A stretch of DNA of 64,000 nt from an uncultured Amnibacterium sp. (GCF_964245895.1 NZ_CAXTOQ010000003.1:3187-67186); one strand, 5' to 3'. Positions 5,457-26,586 are shown, counted from the first letter of the stretch. Notes: generated from the letters alone by a model not told the origin. Made by a program: numbers and translations.

Positions 5457-5457
5457 G

Positions 5458-9625: not shown

Positions 9626-10355
9626 GGCGCACCTCCCGCTCGACCGCGGCGCGGCGGGCGCCGTCGATCAGCTCGACCGCCGCAGGGAGGAAGATCGGCG
9701 TGCCGCTCGGGATGCGCTGCGGGTCGTCGATGCCGTTCACCTCGGCGAGCCGCCGCCACAGCGCGGGGTCGCCGTACTCCGACCAGGCCAGCGCGGCGAG
9801 GCCGTCGCCCGCGTCGAACACGTGGACCCGCTTCGGCAGCAGCCCGCCGGACGTCGGGTTCTGCTTCGCCGTCTCCCCCGCGATCTCCTCGAGGTTCACC
9901 GTGCAGACCGCGCGCAGCGGCATCCCGCTCGGGGAGAAGAGGGTGTACTTCGCCGAGACGGACCGGACGAACGCGTGGAAGCCCGTCAGCTCCCCCCACC
10001 GGAACATCACCCAGGGCGCCGAGCTCGCCGCCTTCCCCCGGGTGTCGCTGGTCGGGACGCAGCACTCGAACAGCGCGTCGACGCTGTCCTTCACCGCCGA
10101 GCCCGGCTTGTCGCTGGTGTCGAAGAACATCTCCAGCGTGAGCTTCCCGGGCTCCGGTCCGGTGTACTGCGGCGGTCCGCTCGACTTCGCCCGCTTCGTC
10201 TTGTGGTGCTCCCAGTGGGCGGACTTCGTGAACGTGATCTCCTTCGGGTTGAACTGGAAGGTGATCTGCTTGCGCTCGGGACCCGGCGCGTCCAGCGAGT
10301 CCTTCCCCGGCTCGAAGACCCGCAGGTAGGCCTTCTCGAGCCCCTCGACGGCCAC
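9612..10355 (-). CDS. CIS tube initiator / LysM-domain baseplate protein
   Basis: ITFQFNPKEI, PWVMFRWG, NPTSGG motifs and C-terminal LysM-like EYGDPALWRRLAEVNGIDDP. Confidence 0.88.
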   Translation of the reverse strand: MAVEGLEKAYLRVFEPGKDSLDAPGPERKQITFQFNPKEITFTKSAHWEHHKTKRAKSSGPPQYTGPEPGKLTLEMFFDTSDKPGSAVKDSVDALFECCVPTSDTRGKAASSAPWVMFRWGELTGFHAFVRSVSAKYTLFSPSGMPLRAVCTVNLEEIAGETAKQNPTSGGLLPKRVHVFDAGDGLAALAWSEYGDPALWRRLAEVNGIDDPQRIPSGTPIFLPAAVELIDGARRAAVEREVRRAAR

Positions 10356-10359
10356 CGGC

Positions 10360-10794
10360 TCAGCCCCTGCTCGCGGTCACGCCGTGGTGCGCGATCTCGA
10401 GGGTCTCGGTCACGACCTTCGGGGAGTCGTTCGTCAACGACGGCCCGGTCCAGCGGACCGGGACCACCCCGTCCAGCGACCACACCACGACGGTCCTGCC
10501 CGCCGCGGTCATGGCGGAGATCGTGCCCGTGCCGCGGCGGTAGCCGGACATCAGCTTCGACATCCAGGTGACCACCGCGGCGCTCTCCGCACCCAGCGGC
10601 CGCGTGAGCTTGACGTTCGGGAACTTCAGCCGGGTCGGCAGCTGCCAGACGAAGCCGTTGTTCCCGCCCTCCTCCCGCGTCTCGAGCACGACCTCGATCC
10701 CCAGCCCCTCGCAGGAGGAGAAGGTGCCCAGGTCCGCCTCGTCGAGCTTGACGAGGTACCGCACGCTGACGGCGGTATCGGTGTCCTCGAGCAT
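10360..10794 (-). CDS. Phage tail tube protein 2 (T4 gp19-like)
   Basis: CEGLGIEV..REEGGNN, LPTRLKFPNVKLTR, VPVRWTGP, ETLEIAHHG motifs. Confidence 0.88.
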   Translation of the reverse strand: MLEDTDTAVSVRYLVKLDEADLGTFSSCEGLGIEVVLETREEGGNNGFVWQLPTRLKFPNVKLTRPLGAESAAVVTWMSKLMSGYRRGTGTISAMTAAGRTVVVWSLDGVVPVRWTGPSLTNDSPKVVTETLEIAHHGVTASRG

Positions 10795-10804
10795 GCTGCG
10801 CTCC

Positions 10805-12646: not shown

Positions 12647-12649
12647 GCG

Positions 12650-12808
12650 TCAGCCGCCTTCCGCGGAGCGACGGTTCAGCTCCGAGATCGCCTCGACGTA
12701 GCGCAGCCGCTCGCGGTGCTCCAGGTCCAGGATGTCGTCGAGCGGCCAGTGGAAGTGGTAGGCGATGTACGCGACCTCCTCGCGGATGCGGTCGGTCGCG
12801 TACGTCAC
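12650..12808 (-). CDS. DUF6760-like small protein (resembles gpT/gpE' chaperone extension)
   Basis: VTYATDRIREEVAYIAYHFHWPLDDILDLEHRERLRYVEAISELN; lies in the -1 frame, overlapping the upstream stop by GTGA. Confidence 0.85.
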   Translation of the reverse strand: MTYATDRIREEVAYIAYHFHWPLDDILDLEHRERLRYVEAISELNRRSAEGG

Positions 12809-12817
12809 GATTCCCCC
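12767..12817 (-). promoter_or_regulatory. Candidate programmed -1 ribosomal frameshift signal: GGGGGAA slippery heptamer plus downstream stem-loop
   Basis: mRNA reads CTG GGG GAA TCG TGA; heptamer at 12817-12811, 7-nt spacer, perfect stem GTACGCGACC (12803-12794) / GGTCGCGTAC (12776-12767). Confidence 0.6.
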
Positions 12818-13218
12818 AGGCGACCACCTGCCAGGTCGGCCGTGAACCGGTGCTCGCACGCCGGGCAGGTGATCGCGATCCGCGTGTGGCCCTCGGCGTT
12901 GATCCGCCGGTAGAAGTCCTGCAGGAAAGCGACGTCGGACGCGTACATGCGCTCGACGACGCCGGCGTCGACCTTCGGCAGGGAGCCGAGCCGGGTGATC
13001 ACCCGGCCGAGCAGCACCACCGTCGTCCAGGCCGCGTGCTCCTGGACCTTGGCGTCGAACAGCGGCAGCAGCTCGTCCCTGGCCGTGGCGAGCCGCATCG
13101 TGCCGGACCGGTGCACCGCGCCGTCGTCGCCCAGGTAGCCGCGCGGCAGCTCGAAGTCGAACTCGGTCCGCAGCGCGGCCTGCTCCTCCTCCGCGGCGAC
13201 GGACACCGTGCGCTGCAT
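12805..13218 (-). CDS. Probable tail assembly chaperone of the CIS (C-terminal CxxC)
   Basis: TEFDFELPRGY, GTMRLATARDE, FLQDFYRRIN, ITCPACEHRF..GGRLGES; immediately after the tube gene, the chaperone position in contractile tails. Confidence 0.7.
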   Translation of the reverse strand: MQRTVSVAAEEEQAALRTEFDFELPRGYLGDDGAVHRSGTMRLATARDELLPLFDAKVQEHAAWTTVVLLGRVITRLGSLPKVDAGVVERMYASDVAFLQDFYRRINAEGHTRIAITCPACEHRFTADLAGGRLGES

Positions 13219-13661
13219 CAGCCCACGCTCGACTCGTCGTAGCAGACCGTGAACTTCTCGGTCGCCTGCTCGGCCGCACCCGCCTTCAGCGAGTTCAGCT
13301 CGACGCTGCGCACCCAGCAGTTGGTGAAGCTGTACGTCTTGATGGTGTCGCCCTTGTAGTCGAGCAGCGCCACCGACGCGGTCTTCCTCGCCCCGGCGAC
13401 GTCGCCGTCCATGACGACCTTCAGCCAGTCCGTGACCGTCTTGCTCTCGGTGAGCCCGCGGGTCACGGTGAACTCGCCCGCCTTCACCCGGCCGATCAGC
13501 TGCCGCACGATGTACTTGCCGTCCGAGGTCTGCTGCTTCAGCTCGATCTTGTCGACCTCGCTCTTCAGCCCGCTGACCTCGGTGACCTTCGGCACCTCGA
13601 TGCCGTCGATCTTGACGATGAAGCCGTTGGCCGGCGACGAGTCGAACTTGTCCAGCGCCAT
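13218..13661 (-). CDS. Major tail tube protein (T4 gp19-like, Hcp-fold)
   Basis: FIVKIDG, EVSGLKSE, FTVTRG, RKTASVALLD, YSFTNCW motifs; follows sheath. Confidence 0.92.
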   Translation of the reverse strand: MALDKFDSSPANGFIVKIDGIEVPKVTEVSGLKSEVDKIELKQQTSDGKYIVRQLIGRVKAGEFTVTRGLTESKTVTDWLKVVMDGDVAGARKTASVALLDYKGDTIKTYSFTNCWVRSVELNSLKAGAAEQATEKFTVCYDESSVG

Positions 13662-13690
13662 GTCGGGTCACTCCTCTCGATCAGGGTCGG

Positions 13691-15232
13691 TCACTCGCCG
13701 ACCAGGCCGGTGCCGCTCGAGAACTGCGCCAGCTGGAACACCACGAACTCCGCCGGCTTCACCGGGGCGACGCCGATCTGGCAGATCACCTGGCCCGCGT
13801 CGATGACCTCGGGCGGGTTGGTCTCCGCGTCGCACTTCACGAAGAACGCCTCCTGCTCGAGCGAGCCGAACAGCGAGCCCGCGCGCCACTCGTTCAGCAG
13901 GAAGGCGCGGATCGTGCGGGTCAGCCGGCCCCACAGCGCCTGGTCGTTCGGCTCGAACACCGCGAACTGGGTCTGGGTGAGGATCGACTTCTCGAGGTAG
14001 TTGAACAGCCGCCGGAGGTTGACGTAGCGCCAGGCGGGATCGCTCGAGAGGGTGCGGGCGCCCCAGACGCGGATGCCGCCGCCGGGGAAGCTGCGGATGA
14101 CGTTGACCCCGATCGGGTTCAGCAGCTCCTGCTCCGTGCGCGTGATCCTGGTGTGCAGGTCGACGGCGCCGCGGACGATCTCGTTCGCCGGCGCCTTGTG
14201 CACGCCGCGCTCGGCGTCGTTCCTGGCCCAGATCCCGGCCACGTGCCCGGAGGGGGGCACGAACCGGATCGTGCTGGTCACCGGGTCCTGCACCTTCACC
14301 CACGGGTAGTACAGGGCGGCGAACTTCGAGTCGTAGCCGGCGGTGCTCACCCGCCACTCGCGCACCTGCTGCGCGTTCATGCCGGGCGGGGAATCCAGGA
14401 TCGCCAGCCGGTCGCCCATCAGCTCGCAGTGGCTGATGACCCCCAGCTGCACGGCCTTCACGGTCTCGAGGTCGATCGCGCCCTGCTCGTAGGCGGCCAT
14501 CAGGTCCGGGACCGTCACCATCGTGACCTCCTCGATGGCCTCGAGGCCGCCGAACCCGGTCCGCTCGGCGGCGTCGCCGATGTAGCTGGCCGCGTCCACG
14601 GCACCGGGGACGGAGAGGTCGGTCGTGGCCGCCGTGGTCAGCTCGTAGGTGCCCTGGAGGGGGCCTGCGGCCGGCACCGGCTGCGACGCGACCTCGATGG
14701 CGACGAGCTTCGACTCGGCCGTGACCCTGGTCGCCACGAAGTCGGGGCTGGTCGGCGTGACGGACAGCCGCTCCCAGCTCTCGCTGCTCTTCCCCTCCGC
14801 CGACACGGTGACGTTCACGAGGTCGCCGCCCGGGTCGTCGCCGGTCGCCGGCTCGAACGCGACCTTCACGCCCTTCGTCGACGCGGCCTTCGCGGTCAGC
14901 AGGTAGCCGCCGGTCGACGCGGCGGCGAGCGCCGCGGTCGGCTTGGCTCCGCGTGCCGGTCGGCTCTTCGCCGCGGTGATGCGGACGATGTAGCAGTTGC
15001 CGCCGCCGTTGTTGAAGTACCCGTAGACGGCGTACCCGAGGTAGGAGCCGGCGGCGAGCCCGCCGAAGGTGTCGACGAACTGCGTCCAGTTCGACACGAG
15101 CGTCGGCGTGTTCTCGGGCCCGATCGGCGCGACGCCGACGAACGCGGCGACGGCGGTGCCGACGCCCTCGATCGGGCGCGTGCCGGCCTCGACCTCCTGC
15201 ACGTACACGCCGGGCGACAGATAGGTGGGCAT
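13691..15232 (-). CDS. Contractile tail sheath protein
   Basis: MPTYLSPGVYVQEV, YYPWVKVQDP, PPSGHVAGIWARND..RGVHKAPAN, WGARTLS, KPAEFVVF motifs. Confidence 0.96.
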   Translation of the reverse strand: MPTYLSPGVYVQEVEAGTRPIEGVGTAVAAFVGVAPIGPENTPTLVSNWTQFVDTFGGLAAGSYLGYAVYGYFNNGGGNCYIVRITAAKSRPARGAKPTAALAAASTGGYLLTAKAASTKGVKVAFEPATGDDPGGDLVNVTVSAEGKSSESWERLSVTPTSPDFVATRVTAESKLVAIEVASQPVPAAGPLQGTYELTTAATTDLSVPGAVDAASYIGDAAERTGFGGLEAIEEVTMVTVPDLMAAYEQGAIDLETVKAVQLGVISHCELMGDRLAILDSPPGMNAQQVREWRVSTAGYDSKFAALYYPWVKVQDPVTSTIRFVPPSGHVAGIWARNDAERGVHKAPANEIVRGAVDLHTRITRTEQELLNPIGVNVIRSFPGGGIRVWGARTLSSDPAWRYVNLRRLFNYLEKSILTQTQFAVFEPNDQALWGRLTRTIRAFLLNEWRAGSLFGSLEQEAFFVKCDAETNPPEVIDAGQVICQIGVAPVKPAEFVVFQLAQFSSGTGLVGE

Positions 15233-15320
15233 CAGGCTCCTCCGGGCGTTCTCACCGAGTCGGTGGGGCCAGCCTCCCCGGCGCAGGATCGCCGCACCCG
15301 TGCCCGCTGGTCCCGTGCGC

Positions 15321-15337
15321 GGGCACGCCGATCGCCC
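15321..15337. promoter_or_regulatory. GGGCA-N7-(T/C)GCCC palindrome, one mismatch, upstream of the sheath operon
   Basis: GGGCA CGCCGAT CGCCC; same spacing as the perfect copies at 22509 and 23235. Confidence 0.4.
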
Positions 15338-15405
15338 ATTCGGGCGGTGCGCGGGGGCAGCCGGTCACGAAACCGGTCGTTCGGGTCCGCATTCCGCGGC
15401 GCGGG

Positions 15406-15421
15406 GAGAACACACGTTCGA
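15406..15421. promoter_or_regulatory. LexA (SOS) box-like site
   Basis: GAGAAC ACAC GTTCGA, perfect GAAC-N4-GTTC core, about 35 bp upstream of the DUF222/HNH gene. Confidence 0.6.
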
Positions 15422-15454
15422 AGGTCTGTCGGTGGGTGGTGGTGTGATGGCCGT

Positions 15455-16779
15455 ATGGAAGAGGAGCGAGCCGCCGAGCCGGCCCCGTCGTCGACGGCCG
15501 AGCGTGATACGTGCTTCCTGCACACGCTGGAGCACACCGACCGGCTCGCGAACACGGCGGACGCGATGCGGTTGCAGGTGATGGCGGCCGGGTTCGAGGC
15601 GATGCTGCTGGACGAGGAGGAGCAGACCGGGATCATGCCTGCGCCGGATGATCCGGCGGTGCGGGCCTTCTTCCTCGACCAGTCGATCCGGCTGCGCACC
15701 ACGCGGCAGGCCGTGGAGGCGCGGATCGCGACGGCCCGGGTGCTGCAGGCGACGCTGCCGGCCACCTGGGCGGTGTTCCTGAGCGGCCGGGCGACGGAGC
15801 GCGGGGTGACGGTGGCGGCCGAGCAGGCCGAGGGCCTCGACGCGCAGCTTCGGCCGGCCTACGACACCAGGGCGGCCGAGCTCGTGCAGACGGAGCGGCC
15901 GAGCGTGCTGGAGCGGGAGCTCGGCGCGATCCGTGACCGGCTCGATCCGGACGGGGCGACGGCGCGCCACCGTCGGGAGACCGAACGGCGGCATCTGCGC
16001 GTCCGCGCGGATCGGGACGGGCAGGCGACGTTGACGATCCGGTCGACCGCGACGGACATCGCCGCGATGGTCGACAAGGTCCGCCGCGACGCCGTCGTCG
16101 CCCACGGGCGGCAGGGCGAATGCCGCACCCTCAGCCAGTTGGAGGTCGACCGCATCGCCGACGCCGTCCTCGGCGCCCCGACGATCGACGCGAGCGAGGC
16201 GCAGAGTCCCTCCTACCCGCTCGAGCGACTCGGTTCGAGCGAGCATCCGAGCGGAAGACGATCCAGGCGACGATCCTGGTCACGATGACGGCGCAGACCG
16301 CCACGGGCGCATCGGACGAGCCGGCCACGGTCGCTGGGATGGGCGCGATCGACGCCGACACCGCCCGGCACCTCCTCGCCCACACGCTGACCTGGACCCG
16401 GGCTCTGATCGACCCCGTCGACGAATCCGTCCTCGGAATCGACACCCACGAGCGCTACATCCCGGCCGGGTTGCGGAAGCTGATCCACCTGCGGATGCCG
16501 ACCTGCGTGGGTGACGACTGCGGGCTGCCATCCCACCGCACCGACCTCGACCACCTCGTCCGCCATGAGCACGACGGCCGCACCCGCCACGACAACCTGC
16601 AACCGCTGTGCCGCAAGGCCCATCAGATGAAGGACGAGGGCTTCATCGACGTCGTGATGGGCTCGGACGGCATCCCGGTCCTGCGAACGAAGTGGGGCGC
16701 CACGCGGCGCGCCAGGGTCGCCTTCACGGCGAGACCCCGCGCACCAGGGATCGAGCTCCCCGACGATCCGCCCTTCTGA
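15455..16779 (+). pseudogene. DUF222 + HNH endonuclease (13E12-like) gene split by a frameshift near 16221-16242
   Basis: Frame 1 from MEEERAAE gives DUF222-like helices (ARHRRETERRHLRV, RTLSQLEVD); frame 2 gives PATVAGMGAIDADTAR, TCVGDDC, DLDH..RHEHDGRT..DNLQPLCRKAH. Confidence 0.75.
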
Positions 16780-16844
16780 CGACCGGTGCGGGAATCGGCT
16801 CCCTTGGCGCGCACGGGCCTTGCGTTGAGACGATGACCGCGTCG

Positions 16845-18113
16845 CTACTTCGAGAGGGCGATGCTCTCCCGGTAGCCCCTGGCCCAACCGAGCAGGGCCT
16901 GCTGCCAGCCCGACGAGTTCGGCGAGTACCAATGCCCGGTCAAGGTGACTTTGGCTAACCCGGAGATACCGATCGCATTCAGTCGATCTTCGATGTCCGT
17001 GCCGACGTCGTACTTGTAGTCATCGGCTGCCTGGGGCGCGGTCGGCGACTTACCACCCTGGGCGGCGCCGACATCGCGCCTCATCTTGGCGATTCCGGCG
17101 GCGGCCGCCGACTCCCTCAGGATCCACGCTGCCCACATGTACCGCTCGTAGATCTTCGCGATCTCCCCCGCGGACAGCAGCTCCTCCGCCCCCGAGCAGA
17201 TCGAGGAGATCTCCGTGAACAGCTGCTGATACTCCGCCTCGGTCCCCGCAGCGTCGAACTTCGCAACATCGTCATCCGACATGGCCGCCAGACTCGTTGC
17301 CCGGTCACTGAAGCTCGCCTCGACCTCCCGCTCGTATCCGGCGAGCGACTCCAGATTGGAGGTGAGGAAGCCGACCGCGGTCTGATCGACGGCGGCGCCG
17401 GGAGTCTTCACCCCGAGATCGTTGTTCGAGGGAGCCTCGGGCACCTGGCCGGCCTTCGAACTCGCGTTCGCGACCTGGTTCCCCCGGATGTTCGTGACGT
17501 AGCCGCCAACGGCCGCAACAGCCGGATTCTCCGCCGTCTCGACGATCTTCTTGATCCGTCGAGCCCGCAGCCCGAGCGTGGTGAACTTCTTACCGAGCGC
17601 GCCCAATCCGGCCATCGCGAGCGGCTCGAAGGCACCGGCGGTGCCGACCGCGATCACCAGACCGATCACCTGAGCCTTCATCGCGTCGGTCTGCGCTTGC
17701 GCGGACTGCGCAGTCTGGAATCCGGCCGTCGCCTGATCGATGCCGTTCGTGATGCGATAGATCGCCTGCTGATAGCTCGCGCGGCGCTCCCCGAACTTCG
17801 CTCGCCACTTCACGTCGATGGCCAGGGCGTTCGACCTCGCCCGATCGGCGGCTCGCGCCTTCTCGAGATCAGCGACCCTGGAGTCGAGCGACGGCTTCGG
17901 GGGCTCGCGTTGGATCGCGGAGACCGGTCCGCGAGCCGTTGTCGTGCTGCGAGCGAGCATCGCGATCGTCGCCTGGTTCCCGGCCTGCTTCTGCAGGCGC
18001 AGCATCTCCGAGGCCGGCGGCGCGCTCGTCGACGATCTGGACTCGACGGCCGCGGCCCGGGCAGTCCGCTGCCGCTCGTGGTTCGGCTCCTCGCGACCCA
18101 GGCGTTCAGCCAT
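16845..18113 (-). CDS. Hypothetical protein (422 aa), candidate CIS cargo/effector
   Basis: Start MAERLGREEP after GGAGGGG SD; LRLQKQAGNQAT leader like DUF4157; hydrophobic hairpin VIGLVIAVGTAGAFEPLAMAGLGALG; lower GC and an in-frame TTA codon. Confidence 0.7.
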   Translation of the reverse strand: MAERLGREEPNHERQRTARAAAVESRSSTSAPPASEMLRLQKQAGNQATIAMLARSTTTARGPVSAIQREPPKPSLDSRVADLEKARAADRARSNALAIDVKWRAKFGERRASYQQAIYRITNGIDQATAGFQTAQSAQAQTDAMKAQVIGLVIAVGTAGAFEPLAMAGLGALGKKFTTLGLRARRIKKIVETAENPAVAAVGGYVTNIRGNQVANASSKAGQVPEAPSNNDLGVKTPGAAVDQTAVGFLTSNLESLAGYEREVEASFSDRATSLAAMSDDDVAKFDAAGTEAEYQQLFTEISSICSGAEELLSAGEIAKIYERYMWAAWILRESAAAAGIAKMRRDVGAAQGGKSPTAPQAADDYKYDVGTDIEDRLNAIGISGLAKVTLTGHWYSPNSSGWQQALLGWARGYRESIALSK

Positions 18114-18194
18114 GGCAGTGATCCCCTCCGCTCGACGCCAGCGGCTTACAGATGCGAGAGCGCTCCGCCGATCCACGCCTCAACGCAGAGCGGC

Positions 18195-18875
18195 TCACCC
18201 CTTCGCCCCCGGGTCCTCCTGCATCGCGCGGTCGGCCGACGCCACCGCGGCGCGCTCGAACCGGTCGCCCGGATCGCTGACGCTGACGCCGTCGCCCGTC
18301 GGGGTCCCGTCGACGGGACCGGAGCGCTGCTGGACCACGTGGGTCAGCTCGTGCGCGAGCGTGTGGCGGCCCTGATCGGAGGAGGGGTCGTACCGGCCGT
18401 TCTGGAAGACGACGTCGGATCCGACCGTGTAGGCGCTCGCCCCGACGGACGTCGCCGACTCGTGAGCGTCCGCGCCCGTGTGCACGCGCACGTCCCCGAA
18501 GTCGGAACCGAGCCGCCGCTCCATGTCGCCACGCACCGGCGAAGGCAGCGGCGATCCGCTGCCGCTCCGCAGCAGGCTGAGGACGGGCGACTCCTCCTCC
18601 CGCTGCACCGCCTCGGGCGAGCCGCTGTCGCTCCGGAGGCGGCTCATCTGCAGCTCCTCCTCCTCTTCCGGCTGCTCCTCCCGCTGCACGACCTCGGCGG
18701 TCGCCGCGTTGCCGACGGCGCGCTGCAGGGCGAGCACACCGTGCGGGCTCACATGTCCGGCGGCCGCGAGCTGCAGCGCCTCCGCCGCCTGGGCGGTGGA
18801 CGCGCCGGTCCTGGAGGGCCGGCCGAGCTCCTCCGCCGACTCCCGCTCGTCGCGGTGCTGCCGCTCCATCGCCAT
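18195..18875 (-). CDS. DUF4157 (eCIS core domain) protein, HExxH motif, no C-terminal toxin domain
   Basis: GSPLPSPVRGDMERRLGSDFGDVRVHTG..AYTVGSDVVF..LAHELTHVVQQ; start MAMERQ. Confidence 0.9.
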   Translation of the reverse strand: MAMERQHRDERESAEELGRPSRTGASTAQAAEALQLAAAGHVSPHGVLALQRAVGNAATAEVVQREEQPEEEEELQMSRLRSDSGSPEAVQREEESPVLSLLRSGSGSPLPSPVRGDMERRLGSDFGDVRVHTGADAHESATSVGASAYTVGSDVVFQNGRYDPSSDQGRHTLAHELTHVVQQRSGPVDGTPTGDGVSVSDPGDRFERAAVASADRAMQEDPGAKG

Positions 18876-18892
18876 GTCCCCGGTCCACCTCC

Positions 18893-20989
18893 TCAGCCCT
18901 GCGCCGCGAGTCCGCTCGAGGGCCGCTCCGGCGCGATCAGATCCCAGTATCGACCGAACTCGCCCTCCAGCGTCAGGCGGCCGAGCTTGCGGTACTCGCG
19001 CTGCACCCCGCCGATCAGGTGCCGCATCGCGACGGGCTCGTCGCCGGCCGCTGCGAGGTACGCGCTCGTGACCGCGGCGGAGCGGATGGCCCCTCCCGAC
19101 AGCTCGAAGGACGCGCCGAGGAACGTCAGATCCAAGTCGTCGCCGCGGGGCACGCCGCGGGCGAGCGAGATGTCCCACAGGCGCGAGCGGTGCGCCGCGT
19201 CGGGCATCGGGAAGTCGATGAGCACGTCCAGTCTGCGGAGGAACGCGTCGTCGATGTTCGCCCGCAGGTTCGTCGCCAGGATCGCGAGTCCGTCGAACGA
19301 CTCGATCCGCTGCAGCAGGTAGGCGCTCTCGATGTTCGCGTACCGGTCGTGGGCGTCCTTCACGTCGCTGCGCTTGCCGAACACCGAGTCCGCCTCGTCG
19401 AACAGCAGCACCGCGTTCGTCCGATCCGCCGCGGTGAAGATTCGGTCGAGGTTCTTCTCCGTCTCGCCGATGTACTTGTCGACGACCGACGCCAGATCGA
19501 TGACGTACAGGTCCAGCTCGAGCTGCCGCGCGACCACCTCCGCCGCCATCGTCTTGCCGGTGCCCGAGTCGCCGGCGAACAGGGCGACGACCCCGTGCCC
19601 GCGCCCACCGCCCGGCCGCATCCGCCAGTCGCCGAGCACCCGTTCCCGGTACCGGGCCCGGATCTCGAGCTCGTGCAGCGCGGACAGCGCCGTCGCCGGC
19701 AGCACCAGGTCGTCCCAGCCGACCGCGGGCTGGACCCGCCGGGCGAGCCGGTCCATCGCCGCGCCGTTCTGCGCCCGCGCGCCGGCGGCGAGGTGCGCCT
19801 CCGTCACGACCCCCTGCTCGGACGCGGCCGCCTGCCGCACCGCGGACCGCGCCGCCATCCGGATCTGGCCCGGATCGAGCCGGAACTGGGCGGTCGCGGC
19901 GCCCACCGGCAGGTCCCCGGCGGATCCGCCGAGCTCCTGCTGCCACAGCGTCGTCCGGTCCGCCGCGCCGGCGTCGACGCCGTCGACGACCAGCACCGGA
20001 TCACGGACCCAGTCCGGGTCCCACGGGCCGTGCCCGACGAAGACGGTCGGCAGGTCGCCGGCGCAGAGCGCCTGCAGGCAGAGCTCCTGCAACACGGCCG
20101 GGTCGGGAGCGGGCACGGGATGCGCGACGAGCCCGCGACCGGAGAGCAGGGCCTCGCGGGCGACGATCCGCGCGGTCCGCCTGGCCTCCTCCCGGGTGCC
20201 CGTCGACATCGCCGCCAGGTCGACCGTGAGCGCGCCGAAGCCCGCCTGCCCCAGCGCGGTGGCCGCGAGCCCGACGGAGGAGGAGAGCGACGACTCGCGC
20301 AGGTAGAGCAGCCGCGCGCCCGCCCGCACCGCCCGCACCACCGCCGTCGTGCTGCCCCAGGCGATCGCCGGCTCCTCGGTCAGCGCCGGCGTCGCCGCCG
20401 GGTCCGGGGCGTTGTCGCCCAGGAGGTGCGCGACCACCCGATCCGGCACGGTCAGCGCCCGGCTCGGCAGCGGCCGATCCGCGTCGTCCACGGTCAGCAG
20501 CAGGCCTGTCACGAGCGGCCCGTGGAGCAGGCGCCCGCGCGCGGAGGCGGAGGCGAGCGACGCGCCGGCGAGCTCGAGCGCCAGCCCGATCGAGGGCCGC
20601 CGGCGGGTGACGTCGTCGTTCAGGTAGCCGAACAGGGGCTCGAAGCGCGGATCGAGGTCGGCCGCGAGCGCGATGAGCAGCAGCTCGACGTCCAGCGCGC
20701 CGAGGTGGAACCGCCGGGTCAGATCGCGCAGCCGCAGGCGCTCCCCCGCCGCCTCCGCCTCGTCCGCGCGCCGCTCGCAGTCCTGCAGCATCGGCTGCAC
20801 CGCGGAGGCCGGACTCGTGCCGCGCTCGCCCGCCAGCAGCCGGTCGGCCATCGCGTCCGTGATGTACAGGCCCCGGAACGGGTCGTCCGGCTGAGGATCC
20901 GACGCCCGACGCGACGCGATCAGCCGCCGCACCCGGTCCTCCACGACGCCGACCCGGGCGAGGAGGTGCGTGGTGCTCGCGTCGCTCAT
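18893..20989 (-). CDS. CIS AAA+ ATPase (Afp15/Pvc15-like)
   Basis: Start MSDASTTHLLAR; Walker A GDSGTGKT, VVDKYIGETEKNL, Walker B LLFDEAD, ATNLRANIDDAFLRR. Confidence 0.93.
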   Translation of the reverse strand: MSDASTTHLLARVGVVEDRVRRLIASRRASDPQPDDPFRGLYITDAMADRLLAGERGTSPASAVQPMLQDCERRADEAEAAGERLRLRDLTRRFHLGALDVELLLIALAADLDPRFEPLFGYLNDDVTRRRPSIGLALELAGASLASASARGRLLHGPLVTGLLLTVDDADRPLPSRALTVPDRVVAHLLGDNAPDPAATPALTEEPAIAWGSTTAVVRAVRAGARLLYLRESSLSSSVGLAATALGQAGFGALTVDLAAMSTGTREEARRTARIVAREALLSGRGLVAHPVPAPDPAVLQELCLQALCAGDLPTVFVGHGPWDPDWVRDPVLVVDGVDAGAADRTTLWQQELGGSAGDLPVGAATAQFRLDPGQIRMAARSAVRQAAASEQGVVTEAHLAAGARAQNGAAMDRLARRVQPAVGWDDLVLPATALSALHELEIRARYRERVLGDWRMRPGGGRGHGVVALFAGDSGTGKTMAAEVVARQLELDLYVIDLASVVDKYIGETEKNLDRIFTAADRTNAVLLFDEADSVFGKRSDVKDAHDRYANIESAYLLQRIESFDGLAILATNLRANIDDAFLRRLDVLIDFPMPDAAHRSRLWDISLARGVPRGDDLDLTFLGASFELSGGAIRSAAVTSAYLAAAGDEPVAMRHLIGGVQREYRKLGRLTLEGEFGRYWDLIAPERPSSGLAAQG

Positions 20990-21603
20990 CTCGCCCGCCG
21001 TACGGGTCGTTCGAGTCGTTCGACGACGGACCCGTCGAAGGTCCGGATCTCGGGAACGGGCCGGCTCAGGACCGGCGGTCCGAGCGCGAGGGCGACGTCG
21101 GCGAGCGCCGGCGCGATGACGACGAGGTCCAGCGACGGCTTCAGCTCGCCGCCGAGCGACGACCAGACGTCGGCGAAGGCGCGGTCCTCGGGAGGCGGCA
21201 GCGCGATGCTCACCGGCACCGGGCTGGCGATGTCCGCGAGCGACCCGGTCAGGGTCTCGGGCGGCAGCGCGTCCAGCCGGTCGAACGAGGTCAGCATCCG
21301 GTCGAGCAGGCGGTGCTCGTCCTCCGGCCGCTGCACCCACGCGGTGAGCAGGTAGGACAGCTTGAAGTAGCGGGCCGGTCGGCTCCTCGTGCGGACCGTG
21401 CCGTCGTCGCTGCGCCGCTCGACGACGCCGTTCTCCCGCCGGCGGACGTCCTCGCGGATGTCGTAGAGGAACGCGTCGATGGTCGGGCCGCTCCGTCGCG
21501 CCGCCCAGTCCGTCGTCGGCGCATCGAAGGCCAGCTCGACCTCGCCGTGACCGAGGACGGCCCCCAGCACCTGCTTGATGGACTCGTCGACCTCCGTGAT
21601 CAC
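20986..21603 (-). CDS. DUF4255 (Pvc16/Afp16-like tail terminator) protein
   Basis: AFDAPTTDWAARRSGPTIDAFLYDIRED, YLLTAW..PEDEHRLL, GELKPSLDLV motifs. Confidence 0.9.
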   Translation of the reverse strand: MITEVDESIKQVLGAVLGHGEVELAFDAPTTDWAARRSGPTIDAFLYDIREDVRRRENGVVERRSDDGTVRTRSRPARYFKLSYLLTAWVQRPEDEHRLLDRMLTSFDRLDALPPETLTGSLADIASPVPVSIALPPPEDRAFADVWSSLGGELKPSLDLVVIAPALADVALALGPPVLSRPVPEIRTFDGSVVERLERPVRRAR

Positions 21604-21610
21604 CGCGGCC

Positions 21611-22435
21611 TCACCCTCCCCCGGACGAGCCCGGCACGACGAGCAGGGGGGCCCGCGCCGTCGTCGGCGTCGGTGCGGCCGCGCCGTCGGTCCCGCCCGC
21701 GACGAGCAGCGTCCTCGGCCCGAGGGGGTCGAACTGCAGGATCGGGAAGGAGGCGTCGATCACCCCGCCGACCGCGCGGAACGGGCCGACGGGCGCGACG
21801 CCCTGACTCCACGACAGCCGGTAGTCGCCGTCCGTCGGCAGGCCGCTCACCACGACGCGGACGACCCCGCCCGGTGCCACCACCTCGGGCGAGTAGGTCA
21901 CGGCGAACCCGGGGCCGACCGACAGCACCGCGGTCTCGGTGGGCCCGACGTCGACCGCGGGCGAGAACTCGGCCTCGTCCGCGTCCCGGTGCTCGGTGAT
22001 CGCGGCCTGGACCTCGGCGTCCGCGGAGCCGGCCGCGACGTCGACGGAGAAGGTGACGGTCGAGACCAGGCCCGGCTCGCCGCGCAGCAGGCACACCCCC
22101 TCCGCCACGTCGGTGCACCCCGTGAGCGCCCCCGGGACGACGGTCGCGCCACCGGTGCCGGTGAGGTCGACGCCCACCCCCTCCTCCGCGACCGAGAGGG
22201 GCAGGGCCGGATCGACCGGCACCGCCGCGGTCCCGTCCGCCTGCGGCCGGTCGACGGTGAGGGTGACCGTCACCGTGCCGCCCGCGGCCGGGGTCGGCGC
22301 GTCGCGCGACAGGGTGAGCCGGTAGGGGGTGCCCCCGCCGACCGCAGCCGGGACCGCGGGGGCGCGTGGGGCCGGGGCGGCTGCGATCACCGGGACCAGC
22401 AGCAGCGCAGCCGCGGCGACCGCCCGGATGTGCAC
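21611..22435 (-). CDS. Putative secreted protein with Ig-like beta domains
   Basis: Signal-peptide-like start MHIRAVAAAALLLVPVIAA; Val/Thr/Gly-rich beta strands; ends PLLVVPGS; leads the DUF4255-ATPase run. Confidence 0.55.
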   Translation of the reverse strand: MHIRAVAAAALLLVPVIAAAPAPRAPAVPAAVGGGTPYRLTLSRDAPTPAAGGTVTVTLTVDRPQADGTAAVPVDPALPLSVAEEGVGVDLTGTGGATVVPGALTGCTDVAEGVCLLRGEPGLVSTVTFSVDVAAGSADAEVQAAITEHRDADEAEFSPAVDVGPTETAVLSVGPGFAVTYSPEVVAPGGVVRVVVSGLPTDGDYRLSWSQGVAPVGPFRAVGGVIDASFPILQFDPLGPRTLLVAGGTDGAAAPTPTTARAPLLVVPGSSGGG

Positions 22436-22508
22436 ACGCCACCACCCTCCTGCGATCGACCGTGGCCGCCGCCGGTCCGCCGGTCACGACCGACGGAGGC
22501 AGACCGAA

Positions 22509-22525
22509 GGGCAGCGGCCGTGCCC
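22509..22525. promoter_or_regulatory. GGGCA-N7-TGCCC palindrome (perfect)
   Basis: GGGCA GCGGCCG TGCCC between the LuxR stop and the next gene start. Confidence 0.5.
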
Positions 22526-22532
22526 GATGGCG

Positions 22533-23162
22533 TCAGATCAGGCCCTCGCGCAGCGCGAACGCGACGGCGTGCGACCGGTTGCGCAGCTGCAGCCTCGTCG
22601 TCACGTCGTGCAGCACGTTCTTCACGGTCCGTTCGGAGTACGCGAGCTTCGCCGCGATCTCGCCCGTGTCGTAGCCGTCGGCCACCAGGCGCAGGACGTC
22701 GATCTCGCGCGGCGCGAGCTTCCGCATGCCGAGCCCGGTCGGGTCGAGCAGGGTGCGCTGCAGCCGACCGACCTGCCCGAGCAGCCGCCCCAGCAGGTCG
22801 GGCGGCAGGCTCCCCTCCCCGGCGGCCGCCGCCCGGATGCAGGCGACGAGGCGATCCGAGCTCGCCTCGCTGCGGCGCAGCACCCCCACGACGCCGCACT
22901 CGATCGCGATGATCAGGTCCTCGTCGTGGAGGGTGGTGCAGACGAGCACGACCCGGCTCTCCGCGGTCCGCTGCAGGGAGCGGAGGCGGGTCACCGTCGC
23001 CTCGTCCAGGGTGTCGGTCACGACCAGCACGACGACCGCGGCGTCGTCGGCCTGGTCCAGCCGGATCTCGGAGCGGTGCCGCAGCTGGGATCGGACCCCC
23101 GCTTCGGAGATCGGGTCGGTCGCCTGCACGGCGACGCTCGGGCGGTACGCGGTGGTCAGCAT
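22533..23162 (-). CDS. LuxR/NarL-type regulator with atypical receiver-like N-terminus
   Basis: Start MLTTAYRPS; LAPREIDVLRLVADGYDTGEIAAKLAYSERTVKNVLH..NRSHAVAFALREGLI. Confidence 0.9.
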   Translation of the reverse strand: MLTTAYRPSVAVQATDPISEAGVRSQLRHRSEIRLDQADDAAVVVLVVTDTLDEATVTRLRSLQRTAESRVVLVCTTLHDEDLIIAIECGVVGVLRRSEASSDRLVACIRAAAAGEGSLPPDLLGRLLGQVGRLQRTLLDPTGLGMRKLAPREIDVLRLVADGYDTGEIAAKLAYSERTVKNVLHDVTTRLQLRNRSHAVAFALREGLI

Positions 23163-23234
23163 CGGCGGTCCTCTCGGGGCGGGTCGCCCCAGGCTGGAGC
23201 ACGGTGCTCTTCGTGCAATCAACATCCGCTCAAC

Positions 23235-23251
23235 GGGCAACCCGGCTGCCC
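23235..23251. promoter_or_regulatory. GGGCA-N7-TGCCC palindrome (perfect)
   Basis: GGGCA ACCCGGC TGCCC in the divergent LuxR / Ig-protein intergenic region. Confidence 0.5.
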
Positions 23252-23306
23252 CGCGGGGAGACCGGGCAGGCGACCCCGGAGGCGGGGCCCGCCGTACGGT
23301 CGGCCC

Positions 23307-24563
23307 GTGACAGCCGCGACGATCACGCCCGCGTCGATCGACGTCACGCCCGGGCTCGTCGCCGTCGCGACCATCGCGATCGTGAACGACGGCTCCGTCG
23401 TCGAGGCCTACACGCTGACGGTGCTCGGCCAGTGCGCGGCCTGGACGACCCTCGCGCCGCAGACGGTCTCGGTCTACCCGGGCGAGACCGGCTCGGTGAC
23501 GGTCACCATCACGCCGCCCCGCAAGCCCGCGCCGCAGGCAGGCAGGATCCCCTTCGCCGTGCGGGTGCTGCCGGCCGAGCACCCCGAGTCGGCGACCGTC
23601 CCCGAGGCCGCGGTGGTCGTCGCGCCGGTCGCCGAGACGATCCTGGAGCTCCTGCCGCGGATGTCCACCGGCACGATGCGGCCGGACGTGCGGCTCGGCA
23701 TCGAGAACCGCGGCAACGCTGTGCAGCGGGTCGTGATCACGGGAAAGCCGCAGACGGACGGCATCACCGCGGCGCCCTTGCAGCCCGAGGTCCAGCTGGC
23801 ACCTGGCGGTATGACGTTCGTCGACCTCGACATCCGCGCGGTCAAGCGGGTGTGGCGCGGCGCGCCGATGATCCACCCGTTCTCGGTGACGGTCGAGCCG
23901 GACGGCGGCCAGATCGCCGCGGTGGATGGGACCTTCCGGCAGAACCCGGTGCTCCCGTCGTGGTTCGGGAAGGCGGTCGTCGCGACGATCGTCGCGATCG
24001 GCGCGCTCGTCGCGCTCTGGTTCGCGCTGCTCAAACCGCAGGTCGAGTCCGCGGCCGTCGCGGCGGTCGACCAGCCGCTCGCCTCCGCCAACACCGCCGC
24101 GCAGCAGGCGCAGCAGAACTCGAACCAGGCGCTGCAGGCCGTCGGGCAGACTCCCTCCCCCCTCCCCGGCCAGCTCGCCGGCAAGCCGACCGTGAGCACC
24201 CCGACCTCGCTTCGCCTGCAGATCGACGTGCCGACCGGTCAGACCAGGACGAGCGATCCCTACACGGTCGCACCCGACGCGACGCTGTCGATCACGGACG
24301 TGATCCTGCAGAACCGCCAGGGGGACGCGGGCGTGCTTGACATCCGCGTGAACGAGCAGATCGTGCTCACGTTCGGGACGGAGAACTACCGCGATCTCGA
24401 CCTGCACTTCTCGACCCCGATCCAGGTCGCCTCGGGCGAGAAGCTCACGATCGACCAGACCTGCCGCGCACCCGGGCAGCCGCCGGCGCTCGATCCCCCT
24501 CCCGACTCCTGCGACGTGAGCGCGCTGTTCTCCGGCACGACGGTCGCGCCGGTGCAGGGCTGA
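23307..24563 (+). CDS. CIS-associated membrane protein: N-terminal Ig-like (COG1470-like) domains, one TM helix, C-terminal beta domain
   Basis: GTG start VTAATITP; NDGSVVEAY..W..LAPQTVSVYPG, IPFAVRVLP, ENRGN motifs; TM WFGKAVVATIVAIGALVALWFALL. Confidence 0.75.
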   Translation: MTAATITPASIDVTPGLVAVATIAIVNDGSVVEAYTLTVLGQCAAWTTLAPQTVSVYPGETGSVTVTITPPRKPAPQAGRIPFAVRVLPAEHPESATVPEAAVVVAPVAETILELLPRMSTGTMRPDVRLGIENRGNAVQRVVITGKPQTDGITAAPLQPEVQLAPGGMTFVDLDIRAVKRVWRGAPMIHPFSVTVEPDGGQIAAVDGTFRQNPVLPSWFGKAVVATIVAIGALVALWFALLKPQVESAAVAAVDQPLASANTAAQQAQQNSNQALQAVGQTPSPLPGQLAGKPTVSTPTSLRLQIDVPTGQTRTSDPYTVAPDATLSITDVILQNRQGDAGVLDIRVNEQIVLTFGTENYRDLDLHFSTPIQVASGEKLTIDQTCRAPGQPPALDPPPDSCDVSALFSGTTVAPVQG

Positions 24564-24564
24564 G

Positions 24565-24879
24565 ATGCCGGCGGGCCCCGCGCTGCGCGCCGGCGACATG
24601 GCGATGTGCCCGATGGTCGACGGGGTCACACCGCACGTCGGCGGCGCGGTGACGCCGGCGACGACCGTGCCGACGGTCCTGATCGGCGGGACCCCCGCCG
24701 CCGTGTCGGGCATCCCGGCGGGGATCGTGTGCGCCTCCCCCGCGCCGAACGGGATCGCGATGGGCAGCGTGACCGTGCTGATCGGCGGCATGCCCGCGGC
24801 GCGCGTCGGCGACCTGTCGATGCACGGCGTCCCGATCACGCCCGGGCCCGGGTGCCCGACCGTGATCATCGGAGGATGA
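24565..24879 (+). CDS. PAAR-domain spike tip protein
   Basis: ALRAGD..CP..PH, VLIGGTPAA, VLIGGMPAARVGD, GCPTVIIGG. Confidence 0.9.
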   Translation: MPAGPALRAGDMAMCPMVDGVTPHVGGAVTPATTVPTVLIGGTPAAVSGIPAGIVCASPAPNGIAMGSVTVLIGGMPAARVGDLSMHGVPITPGPGCPTVIIGG

Positions 24880-25044
24880 GCGCCGGCCGCTCGGGCCGCC
24901 GCTCGGCGCGCCTGCCCGAAGGGGCAGGCGGGGTCGCGCGCCCCCGATGCGGAGGCTATGTTCCGACCGTGTCCGCTGCGCGATCCGCGCCCGGGGGTGC
25001 CGCCCCGCTCCTCGGCGTGAGCGATCGTACGGAAGGGCCGGCCG

Positions 25045-26586
25045 ATGGCCGCCGCTGAGACGGGGGACCGCGCCGACACGGCCCTGCGCGCGCTCGAGCG
25101 GGGCAGGTCGAGCGCCGGGGACGCGATCGGCCGGGACCCGGCGCTCGCTCGCCGCGTGCTGGAGGAGCAGCTGCCGCAGGACCTCGCCGCGGTGTCCGTG
25201 CTCGTCGCCGCGGTCCGCGACGGCGTGCCGGACCGGTTGGCCGAGGACCTGCCCGGTCAGCCCGCCGACCCCGTGCTGGCGCGGCTCGCCGACTCGCTCA
25301 CCACGCGCGAGTCGCTCGCTCCCGAACGGGCCAGATGGGCGGTCGCGGTCTGGGCGGTCGCGCTCGGGCTCGCGACGGCCGCGCCTCGCACCGCCACGGC
25401 CACGACGGCGGTGCAGGCGGCCGCGCCCGTCCGGCGCGATCCCTCGCCGCCGACCGCGCCGGTGCCGCCGCCGCGCGACGACCGGGGCGCCGTGCCTCCG
25501 GGACGCCGGCGCAGGCGCTCCTTCGTGCCGCTGATCATCGCGGGCGGCGTCGTCCTGGCCGTGATCGTCGTGGGAGGCGGGCTGCTGGTGCTGCGGCCGA
25601 CCGTCGCGCCGGCCTCGGTCGCGAAGCCGGTCAGGCCGTCGGCCGGCGGCTCGGCCACGCCGACCCCGACCCCGACTCCCCTGCCGGCGATCGTCGTCGC
25701 CGCCCACCGAGGGGGCGGCGAGCTCTACCCGCTCGAGACCGCGGAGGCGATGCTCGACGCGGCGAGACGGCCCGGTGTCGCCGTCGAGACCGACATGCGG
25801 TTCACCTCCGACGGCGTCCCGGTGCTCGTCCACGACCAGACCACCCCCGCGTACATGCCCTGCACCGGAGGGGTCTCCCGGCCGGTGATCGCGACCAAGA
25901 CCTACACGTGGCTGAGCGCCAACTGCCGCACGCTCGCATCGGCATCGCCGTCAGGTGGGCAGTACACGATTCCGAGGGTCGAGGACGTGGCGCGCCAGCT
26001 CTCCGCCATCGCCGGCGCGCAGTGGCTCCTCGAGATCAAGACGACCCTGACCCCGACGCAGGAGACCCGTCTCTTCGACATCCTCGCGAAGTACAAGATG
26101 GTCGACCGCACCGTGCTCACCTCCTTCTTCGCGCCCGAGATCGCGAAGGCGAGGGCCGAGTCGACGCGTCGCGGGCACGACATCCGGCTGATGCAGTTCG
26201 TGCAGAACACGGCGATGAGCGGGCAGAAGGCGGCGAACGACGGGTTGTGGGCGGTCGGCGTGCAGAGCCCCGCGGTCACCAAGGACTACGTCTCGGCGCT
26301 GCACGGTGAGGGCGTGAAGGCGGTCGTGTGGACGCCGAACACCCCGGCCGAGTGGCAGCGCGCCGAGACCGCGGGCGCCGATCTGGTGATCACCGACAAG
26401 CCCACCGCCTGGCTGACCTGGGAGGCCTCGGATCGCAAGTCGGCTCCCGCGGTCGCCAAGCCGCGCGCCGTGGTCCCCCGACCGGTCACGAGCAGGCCGG
26501 CCGTGGCGTCGCCGTCGGCATCGCCGTCGCCGTCCGCGGTGCTCACGCCGGTTCCGACTCCCACCCCGAGCCCGGCCGAGGGCTGA
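25045..26586 (+). CDS. Membrane-anchored glycerophosphodiester phosphodiesterase with unnamed N-terminal helical domain
   Basis: AHRGG..YPLET, ETDMRFTSDGVPVLVHD, LLEIK, VVWTPN, VITDKP; TM LIIAGGVVLAVIVVGGGLLVL; N-terminal domain ends ARWAVAVWAVALG. Confidence 0.85.
   Translation: MAAAETGDRADTALRALERGRSSAGDAIGRDPALARRVLEEQLPQDLAAVSVLVAAVRDGVPDRLAEDLPGQPADPVLARLADSLTTRESLAPERARWAVAVWAVALGLATAAPRTATATTAVQAAAPVRRDPSPPTAPVPPPRDDRGAVPPGRRRRRSFVPLIIAGGVVLAVIVVGGGLLVLRPTVAPASVAKPVRPSAGGSATPTPTPTPLPAIVVAAHRGGGELYPLETAEAMLDAARRPGVAVETDMRFTSDGVPVLVHDQTTPAYMPCTGGVSRPVIATKTYTWLSANCRTLASASPSGGQYTIPRVEDVARQLSAIAGAQWLLEIKTTLTPTQETRLFDILAKYKMVDRTVLTSFFAPEIAKARAESTRRGHDIRLMQFVQNTAMSGQKAANDGLWAVGVQSPAVTKDYVSALHGEGVKAVVWTPNTPAEWQRAETAGADLVITDKPTAWLTWEASDRKSAPAVAKPRAVVPRPVTSRPAVASPSASPSPSAVLTPVPTPTPSPAEG

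Follow-up and report, generated by a model that had tools for sequence, protein, structure and literature searches.

Actinobacterial contractile injection systems (CIS), cytoplasmic as well as extracellular, are under active study in connection with cell death, development and stress. How three or four separate transcription units of one CIS locus could be kept in step is the question raised by the stretch of DNA analysed here, a sequence of 64,000 nucleotides with a G+C content of 73% from an uncultured Amnibacterium sp. (GCF_964245895.1 NZ_CAXTOQ010000003.1:3187-67186), hereafter called the window, which judged by its gene content holds such a locus. The literature searched names regulators of these systems (SlpR/SCO4263, sigma-E and bldA) without a DNA target, and it neither describes an operator sequence for these CIS promoters nor reports a role of SCO4261 in CIS control. 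A preliminary description of the window had pointed to a palindrome, GGGCA-N7-TGCCC, at CIS promoter regions and had proposed that through this operator a locus-encoded LuxR-type (or BTAD) regulator coordinates all CIS transcription units. Computation shows directly the motif itself, the extent to which it is conserved, the constancy of its spacings and its placement relative to the promoter; positional conservation, spacing and geometry support an operator by which the CIS units would be coordinated, and we consider it rather likely that the palindrome serves as an upstream activating site which a dedicated class of CIS promoters has in common and to which the cluster's atypical NarL-type small LuxR protein binds. 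A transcription factor and its operator are of a known general kind; the element is undescribed in the literature searched and has an unusually strict geometry and a wide distribution, and this candidate operator would both supply the DNA target and account for separate transcription units being kept in step.

Palindromic sites around the gene of a small LuxR protein

Genes in the window were modelled from codon usage and annotated with Pfam, and the gene layout given in the preliminary description proved correct. Half-sites of the palindrome are combined at four places in the window, the last of which had been missed before.

22509-22525, no strand: site A, perfect GGGCA-N7-TGCCC, 8 nt past the LuxR stop codon and upstream of the operon that runs from 22435 to 16845
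23235-23251, no strand: site B, perfect GGGCA-N7-TGCCC in the divergent region between the LuxR and FixG_C-like genes
15321-15346, minus strand: site C, composite CGCCC-GAAT-GGGCG-N7-TGCCC as read on the sheath strand, of which the previously reported 15321-15337 is the promoter-proximal part
24913-24926, plus strand: extra site, perfect TGCCC-GAAG-GGGCA, 34 nt past the PAAR stop codon and 118 nt before the GDPD gene

The two perfect N7 copies lie exactly where they had been reported, one on each side of the LuxR gene, and there is no other in the 64-kb window, where 0.09 copies are expected and where none of 100 shuffles reached two. The 3.63-Mb genome has five perfect copies, approximately the chance number; three of them fall within coding regions, and sites A and B are the only intergenic ones genome-wide. 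A 17-mer identical to site A inside a coding region of a 3.4-kb contig (C236:1087-1103) is taken as a coincidence. Site B, whose position is conserved in about 25 of the 80 orthologous loci described below, is predicted to serve both the LuxR and the FixG_C-like promoters.

The one-mismatch copy described upstream of the sheath operon is present as well, yet one-mismatch copies as a class are at chance level in the window (5 found, 4.04 expected), so that the reality of site C rests on the tests of architecture and spacing. Its composite of three half-sites recurs upstream of sheath genes in Streptomyces, Kitasatospora and others, and site C passes every functional test applied despite its chance-level count. 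The weaker GGGCA-N7-TGCGA that had been noted at 1122-1138 fared differently: it exists, yet it has no conserved counterpart upstream of the BTAD genes in three related clusters and fails the test of hexamer spacing described below, and both this copy, judged a chance match, and the idea of a motif upstream of BTAD genes were dropped.

A genome-wide scan, proposed in the preliminary description as a check, found the bare palindrome no more often than chance or a control pattern would give, both here and in five related genomes. On these counts we rejected a genome-wide regulon of the bare 17-mer, and likewise a dispersed repeat of the repetitive extragenic palindromic or miniature inverted-repeat transposable element kind (5 copies in 3.63 Mb are a chance number, and the five other genomes gave control-pattern counts). 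The three-half-site composite with at most 2 mismatches has 35 matches genome-wide, and the 32 outside the locus (24 coding and 8 intergenic) include none that is compelling. Chance-level counts of the bare 17-mer in six genomes and of the one-mismatch class in the window would suit an explanation in which the palindromes are nothing but chance matches in G+C-rich DNA, and this has to be measured against their position, spacing and geometry.

Half-site arrangements in orthologous loci

Eighty loci from Agromyces, Georgenia, Cellulomonas, Kribbella, Streptomyces, Mycobacterium and other genera were gathered from public genomes by a search with the small LuxR protein (53-66% identity), and their intergenic DNA, delimited by our own gene caller, amounts to 178 kb. 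The neighbourhood of the gene is kept in most of these loci, with the FixG_C-like and PAAR genes divergent on one side and the Pvc16, ATPase and eCIS_core genes downstream on the other. Perfect GGGCA-N7-TGCCC is present in 24 of the 80 (26 copies in 670 kb, as against about 1 expected), nearly always at the position of site B. When 19 of these sequences are aligned, the arms are invariant and the spacer varies freely, and the palindrome appears as the first part of a larger conserved module in which it is followed by GTTGAG-N5-GTTGAG and then by TGCACGAAGAG.

Pairs of perfect half-sites in the intergenic DNA are confined to a few spacings. Inverted pairs (GGGCA-Nn-TGCCC) number 22 at N7 and another 22 at N8, everted pairs (TGCCC-Nn-GGGCA) number 45 at N4, and every other spacing gives 0-2 pairs; coding DNA gives 0-3 at the three favoured spacings. 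The N4 and N8 forms frequently share a half-site, which results in TGCCC-N4-GGGCA-N8-TGCCC, and the intergenic regions orthologous to that of site A carry TGCCC-N4-GGGCA(-N8-TGCCC). This refines the earlier reading of the motif, in that the recognised unit would be the half-site TGCCC/GGGCA in three fixed arrangements. At least one perfect intergenic copy is found in 63 of the 80 loci. Lack of conservation in orthologous loci would, according to the preliminary description, have refuted an operator; the spacer profile and the 63 loci show that the motif is conserved.

The same holds beyond the surroundings of the LuxR gene. Larger stretches from five genomes, and the sheath loci of four more, have the motif upstream of the sheath, eCIS_core, post-LuxR and FixG_C-like genes, and no further perfect copies were found elsewhere in those 60-kb cluster regions. 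Sites precede each CIS unit in Georgenia, Cellulomonas, Occultella, a Dermatophilaceae genome, Longispora, Agromyces, Kitasatospora and Streptomyces. The palindrome marks the promoter regions of all CIS units in the window, and its position, its orientation and its spacing are conserved across many actinobacterial genera.

A fixed distance to the promoter

In actinobacterial -10 elements the conserved part is an A at position 2 and a T at position 6. Of 44 distinct N7/N8 palindromes, 31 are followed by such a NANNNT hexamer 43-45 nt beyond the TGCCC end, whereas the background, averaged over other offsets, is 5.8 (binomial P ∼5e-18). The three-half-site composite likewise has one hexamer peak, at 57 nt (8+5+44) and in a single direction. 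The DNA that separates palindrome and hexamer is unconserved among genera and has no conserved -35 element. On the LuxR side of the site B position a second hexamer peak appears at an offset of 38 nt (19 flanks). In front of the FixG_C-like genes of many genera the hexamer reads TA(G/C/A)C(G/C)T and is always 43-45 nt past the palindrome, and it stands only 6-7 nt ahead of the start codon, for which reason these mRNAs are predicted to be leaderless. The element thus sits at a fixed position relative to the core promoter, as expected of an upstream activating site.

Four promoters are marked in this way in the window, those of the sheath-baseplate operon, of the operon after the LuxR gene, of the FixG_C-like/PAAR unit and of the LuxR gene itself. 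Their transcription starts are predicted at ∼23307 on the plus strand and at ∼23184, ∼22452 and ∼15264 on the minus strand. The predicted -10 hexamers, followed by the transcription units that they would serve, are:

15271-15276, minus strand: predicted -10 GAGGCT of the sheath operon, 44 nt from site C, with a predicted 5′ untranslated region of ∼32 nt
22459-22464, minus strand: predicted -10 CACGGT of the operon after LuxR, 44 nt downstream of site A
23191-23196, minus strand: predicted -10 CAGCCT of the LuxR gene, 38 nt from site B
23295-23300, plus strand: predicted -10 TACGGT of the FixG_C-like/PAAR unit, 43 nt from site B and 6 nt before the GTG at 23307, leaderless
3799-15232, minus strand: target unit 1, the operon of sheath, tube, tape-measure, VgrG and baseplate genes (gene model and Pfam)
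16845-22435, minus strand: target unit 2, an unknown 274-aa gene, Pvc16_N, an AAA ATPase, eCIS_core and an unknown 422-aa gene, transcribed from 22435 to 16845 (gene model and Pfam)
23307-24879, plus strand: target unit 3, a FixG_C-like Ig-domain protein and PAAR (gene model and Pfam)
23307-26586, plus strand: the FixG_C-like Ig protein, PAAR and GDPD genes together, GDPD being a membrane protein (gene model and Pfam)

We scanned the window with the full model, a palindrome with at most 2 mismatches and a hexamer at 43-45 nt, and sites A, B and C are the only intergenic matches in the 64 kb that are directed at a downstream gene. One more intergenic match (2 mismatches, minus strand, 24922-24939) overlaps the N4 site, faces back into the PAAR gene and was judged spurious, and the remaining matches, with 1-2 mismatches, are all intragenic. 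A scan of 22300-25100 for canonical sigma-70 promoters gave no match, and the -10 hexamers named above fit only the looser actinobacterial NANNNT/TANNNT form. A promoter of the extracytoplasmic function sigma kind running across the palindrome (AAC, 17 nt, CGTC) was also considered and rejected, as a reading of the flanks revealed no conserved -10 of that kind. Together, the statistics on position, spacer and geometry leave no room for chance matches in G+C-rich DNA, an explanation to which we give practically no credence whatever the bare counts.

The mapped sheath promoter of Streptomyces

A transcription start has been mapped for the sheath gene SCO4253 of S. coelicolor, 32 nt before the ATG, and transcription from this promoter is entirely SCO4263-dependent (PMC2000904); in S. 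lividans the homologue of that regulator, SlpR, is needed to make particles (PMC8505568). The system (Hesketh 2007; Nagakubo 2021) has the same type of cluster and the same promoter as the one in the window, and differs in having a LAL protein as its known activator where the window has, as conserved candidate, a small regulator of the SCO4261 type. The promoter of sco4263 is sigma-E dependent (PMC6767563); by means of the published sigma-E promoter string an S. coelicolor-like genome was located and its cluster read. The gene behind that string encodes a 1186-aa LAL protein and contains a TTA codon, which agrees with the description of SCO4263 as an AAA+LuxR protein (PMC3466318). Adjoining it, in divergent orientation, is the orthologue of the small LuxR gene, and Pvc16 and the ATPase (sco4259) come next. 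By synteny, then, the small LuxR protein is the orthologue of SCO4261, which has been described as a 'possible response regulator' (PMC2275107), and not of SCO4263/SlpR; the latter assignment was rejected once this cluster had been located.

Upstream of the S. coelicolor-like sheath gene we find TGCCC-N4-GGGCA-N7-GGGCA-N7-TGCCC, then 45 nt, the hexamer GAGGCT and, 6 nt further on, the position 32 nt before the ATG. With 45 nt to a GAGGCT that leads to the published start, the centre of the palindrome falls near -66. The sheath promoter in the window has the identical GAGGCT hexamer, a spacing of 44 as compared with 45 nt and a leader of ∼32 nt. Elsewhere in the S. coelicolor-like genome there are three tandem FixG_C-like paralogues with near-identical 5′ ends, each preceded by a separate N8 palindrome that stands exactly 32 nt ahead of a TA(A/G)CGT hexamer, and a further copy of the motif follows the small LuxR gene. 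The candidate operator is accordingly found in a close relative of a model organism, anchored on a mapped start, and it suggests that the unstudied small regulator SCO4261 could be a direct activator.

Conservation of sequence rather than of pairing

Palindromes in intergenic DNA could also be RNA hairpins, that is, terminators, attenuators or elements of processing and stability, instead of DNA operators. Many copies of TGCCC-N4-GGGCA do lie 1-30 nt past a stop codon, site A is only 8 nt past that of LuxR, and the copy at 24913-24926 forms a stem of 9 bp, all of which an RNA structure would explain. The distribution of perfect copies argues otherwise, as 31 are in divergent intergenic regions, where no gene ends, ∼50 are in co-directional ones and 2 are in convergent ones; convergent regions make up 17% of intergenic bases and hold ∼2% of the sites, and are thus avoided. 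Nor is there any covariation: 48 intergenic copies have a single uncompensated mismatch, and compensatory double changes (7 of 217 intergenic, 29 of 388 coding) show no excess over coding DNA. Sites A and B fall outside the predicted minimum-energy RNA folds, with z-scores that are not significant, and a pattern scan found no terminator-like pattern. The strict 44-nt spacing to the -10 hexamer has no explanation at the level of RNA. It is the sequence, rather than the pairing, that is conserved, which argues for recognition by a protein on DNA, and we regard RNA hairpins as a very unlikely account of the palindromes as a whole.

The site at 24913-24926 is a case apart, being the sole strong hairpin among the window sites. 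A GAGGCT hexamer, the same as the sheath -10, occurs 25 nt beyond it at 24952-24957. The site could place the GDPD gene in the CIS regulon or terminate the PAAR transcript, and we treat it as a candidate operator, a candidate terminator or both.

A small NarL-type protein as candidate binder

Three regulators encoded in the window could bind the palindrome.

22533-23162, minus strand: small LuxR protein, 209 aa, with a LuxR/GerE domain (Pfam GerE 2.3e-12), the candidate binder of the palindrome
28411-31077, minus strand: LAL-type regulator, 888 aa, with AAA_16, TPR and GerE (Pfam), in architecture like SCO4263/SlpR, the rival candidate binder
1324-3795, plus strand: BTAD regulator with P-loop, winged helix (Trans_reg_C) and BTAD (Pfam), at the far end of the cluster, a candidate binder of the GTTGAG repeats

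GerE-type dimers bind short palindromes, and the small LuxR protein aligns with VraR and NarL across both its receiver-like and its GerE domain. In a comparison of 82 small LuxR sequences, conservation reaches 81% in the helix-turn-helix and 51% in the N-terminal part. The recognition helix shows no variation and the phospho-acceptor Asp that would be expected is not kept, which makes the protein an atypical orphan response regulator. No kinase gene was found near it. The gene is present in every cluster examined, and paralogues of it outside CIS clusters, in Kribbella, keep the 14-bp N4 form upstream. A tblastn search (E≤0.01) of 60-kb cluster regions from five genomes that have the motif returned no LAL homologue. 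For these reasons, its presence in every cluster, the motif at the Kribbella paralogues and the absence of LAL proteins from five motif-bearing clusters, we favour the small LuxR protein as binder. The part of the preliminary description that named a locus-encoded LuxR-type regulator therefore has a best candidate in this protein, which has the GerE domain and the invariant recognition helix and occurs in every cluster examined; we infer that it is the binder and that its binding would activate rather than repress.

In the Kribbella-type loci (L033, L040, L043, L054 and L061) the small LuxR paralogues lie downstream of a gene that looks, by eye and without a family search, like aroQ, and TGCCCTTTCGGGCA is found 6 nt past the stop codon of this gene. 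Kribbella has its actual CIS cluster in another part of the genome, where the sheath gene is at 2.37 Mb of G010.

The main rival binder of this promoter element, owing to the genetic dependence in S. coelicolor, is the LAL-type (AAA+LuxR) regulator of the SCO4263/SlpR kind, in which case the small LuxR protein would have some other role. The mapped sheath promoter requires SCO4263 (PMC2000904) and particle production requires SlpR (PMC8505568), SCO4263 is itself an AAA+LuxR protein (PMC3466318), and the GerE helix-turn-helix of the window LAL protein is encoded 5 kb from site B. Against this, five genomes with the motif at several promoters have no homologue in their 60-kb regions, and the LAL proteins of the window and of Streptomyces share only their terminal domains, at low identity, while the motif is invariant and the recognition helix of the small LuxR protein is invariant over the same range. 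The dependence on SCO4263 could be indirect, and direct binding by a LAL protein is in our judgement rather unlikely.

Several points nevertheless weigh against an activating site bound by the small LuxR protein. The loci were found by way of this very protein, so that its co-occurrence with the motif is partly built in. The S. coelicolor sheath promoter is known to depend on the LAL protein SCO4263, not on SCO4261 (PMC2000904), and this dependence could be direct. Everted N4 sites together with inverted N7/8 sites go beyond what one rigid dimer would bind, so an oligomer must be assumed. The -10 hexamers are predicted, a mapped start being available solely through the Streptomyces anchor. Finally, with many N4 sites 1-30 nt after a stop codon and with the hairpin at 24913-24926, some of the sites may double as RNA 3′-end structures.

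Direct repeats upstream of the LuxR gene

A second element adjoins the palindrome at site B.

23218-23234, minus strand: two 11-bp-phased direct repeats, GTTGAG-N5-GTTGAT, which abut the site B palindrome and overlap the -35 region of the LuxR promoter

Among the 80 loci, GTTGAG-N5-GTTGAG (2-4 copies with a period of 11 bp) precedes the small LuxR gene in 50, many of which have no palindrome, and these repeats are the most widely conserved feature upstream of that gene; in the Streptomyces loci GTTAGG-N5-GTTAGG takes their place. All assessable genomes that have the repeats encode a BTAD homologue at the far end of the cluster, 22-30 kb from the LuxR gene, and Gordonia and Pilimelia have neither the repeats nor a BTAD match.

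The preliminary description had offered the BTAD protein as an alternative binder of the palindrome, and a gene for this SARP-like, winged-helix regulator does stand at the far end of most clusters examined. Winged-helix domains of the SARP/OmpR type bind direct repeats with a period of 11 bp, however, not inverted repeats (PMC5930380); the palindrome is an inverted repeat, and the element at 23218-23234 next to it has the 11-bp direct repeats. Gordonia and Pilimelia, moreover, have the LuxR gene without a BTAD match. Binding of the palindrome by the BTAD protein thus appears most improbable, and that protein would fit the adjoining 11-bp-phased GTTGAG repeats better.

PhoP is the other regulator to be considered for the repeats, as it footprints three 11-nt repeats in the promoter of SCO4261 in S. 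coelicolor (PMC2275107). That operator (Sola-Landa 2008, PMC2275107) resembles the element described here in having direct repeats with an 11-nt period before the orthologous gene, one unit of which reads GTTGAG in the S. coelicolor-like sequence. It differs in its GTTCAC-like PHO consensus, whereas the repeats here read GTTGAG on the coding strand, lie further from the start codon and co-occur with a BTAD gene. The GTTGAG repeats are probably the site of a winged-helix regulator, with the BTAD protein and PhoP as candidates.

Two observations concern the BTAD regulator itself. Its domain order is unusual, with a P-loop ATPase-like part at the N-terminus and the winged helix and BTAD at the C-terminus, the reverse of classical large SARP proteins. 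Streptomyces clusters have a short version of ∼350-380 aa that consists of winged helix and BTAD only.

Model and related systems

The observations can be combined into a model in which the half-site TGCCC/GGGCA is used as GGGCA-N7/8-TGCCC, often with TGCCC-N4 ahead of it, with its promoter-proximal TGCCC 43-45 bp upstream of the -10. The small, atypical, orphan NarL/FixJ-type regulator would bind there to one face of the helix, as a dimer or a higher oligomer, and from this class-I-like position would help RNA polymerase to initiate. The sheath-baseplate operon, the Pvc16/ATPase/eCIS-core operon and the leaderless FixG_C-like/PAAR unit would in this way be switched on jointly, and the regulator would also feed back on its own gene. 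A winged-helix regulator, the BTAD protein or, as for SCO4261, PhoP, would probably act through the GTTGAG repeats over the LuxR -35 region. With the site and its spacing defined, members of the CIS regulon could be predicted from sequence, an example being the GDPD gene as a candidate effector.

Dimers of the GerE type recognise short inverted repeats such as NarL 7-2-7 sites, the DosR box and the BldM box. The element resembles such NarL/FixJ operators in that it consists of inverted repeats, with half-site centres ∼9 bp apart in the N4 form, and in that the regulator aligns with VraR and NarL. It differs in the sequence of the half-site and in the combined use of everted (N4) and inverted (N7/8) pairs on a 21-22-bp lattice; the regulator differs from the NarL/FixJ kind in that its receiver lacks the conserved acceptor Asp and no kinase gene is nearby.

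Another parallel is the pimaricin cascade, in which the pimM promoter has heptamer direct repeats, 11 bp in period, as the target of PimR (SARP-LAL), and PimM (PAS-LuxR) activates the cluster (PMC5930380). By analogy, GTTGAG repeats before the LuxR gene and palindromes before the structural operons would correspond to the two steps of that cascade. The differences are that a CIS cluster is not an antibiotic cluster, that the repeats have another sequence and that the BTAD protein here carries its ATPase N-terminal to the DNA-binding part.

It is quite possible, though we put it forward tentatively, that there is one actinobacterial CIS promoter code from Streptomyces to Cellulomonas, Georgenia and Agromyces, lacking a -35 element and with TGCCC/GGGCA 44 bp from the -10. 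A regulator of the SCO4261 family would read it as the direct and universal activator, and the known inputs, SlpR/SCO4263, sigma-E and bldA in Streptomyces, PhoP, and the BTAD protein of the cluster elsewhere, would act one level above, through the 11-bp-phased repeats and the promoter of the regulator's gene.

Distribution of the locus and further genes

No orthologue of the small LuxR protein (E≤1e-40) was found in 12 genomes of the same genus and 8 of the same order, and the proteins that match it best come from other families. To judge from this distribution, the CIS locus is apparently an accessory island, probably acquired horizontally. Two further features complete the gene map.

231-1025, minus strand: AIM24 gene (Pfam)
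15455-16779, plus strand: DUF222/HNH element (gene model and Pfam)

The DUF222/HNH element stands between two minus-strand CIS operons, directly upstream of a sheath promoter that is still intact, and resembles a mobile insertion. Its DUF222 and HNH open reading frames share an overlap of 4 nt on the plus strand and may be a split or frameshifted HNH endonuclease gene.

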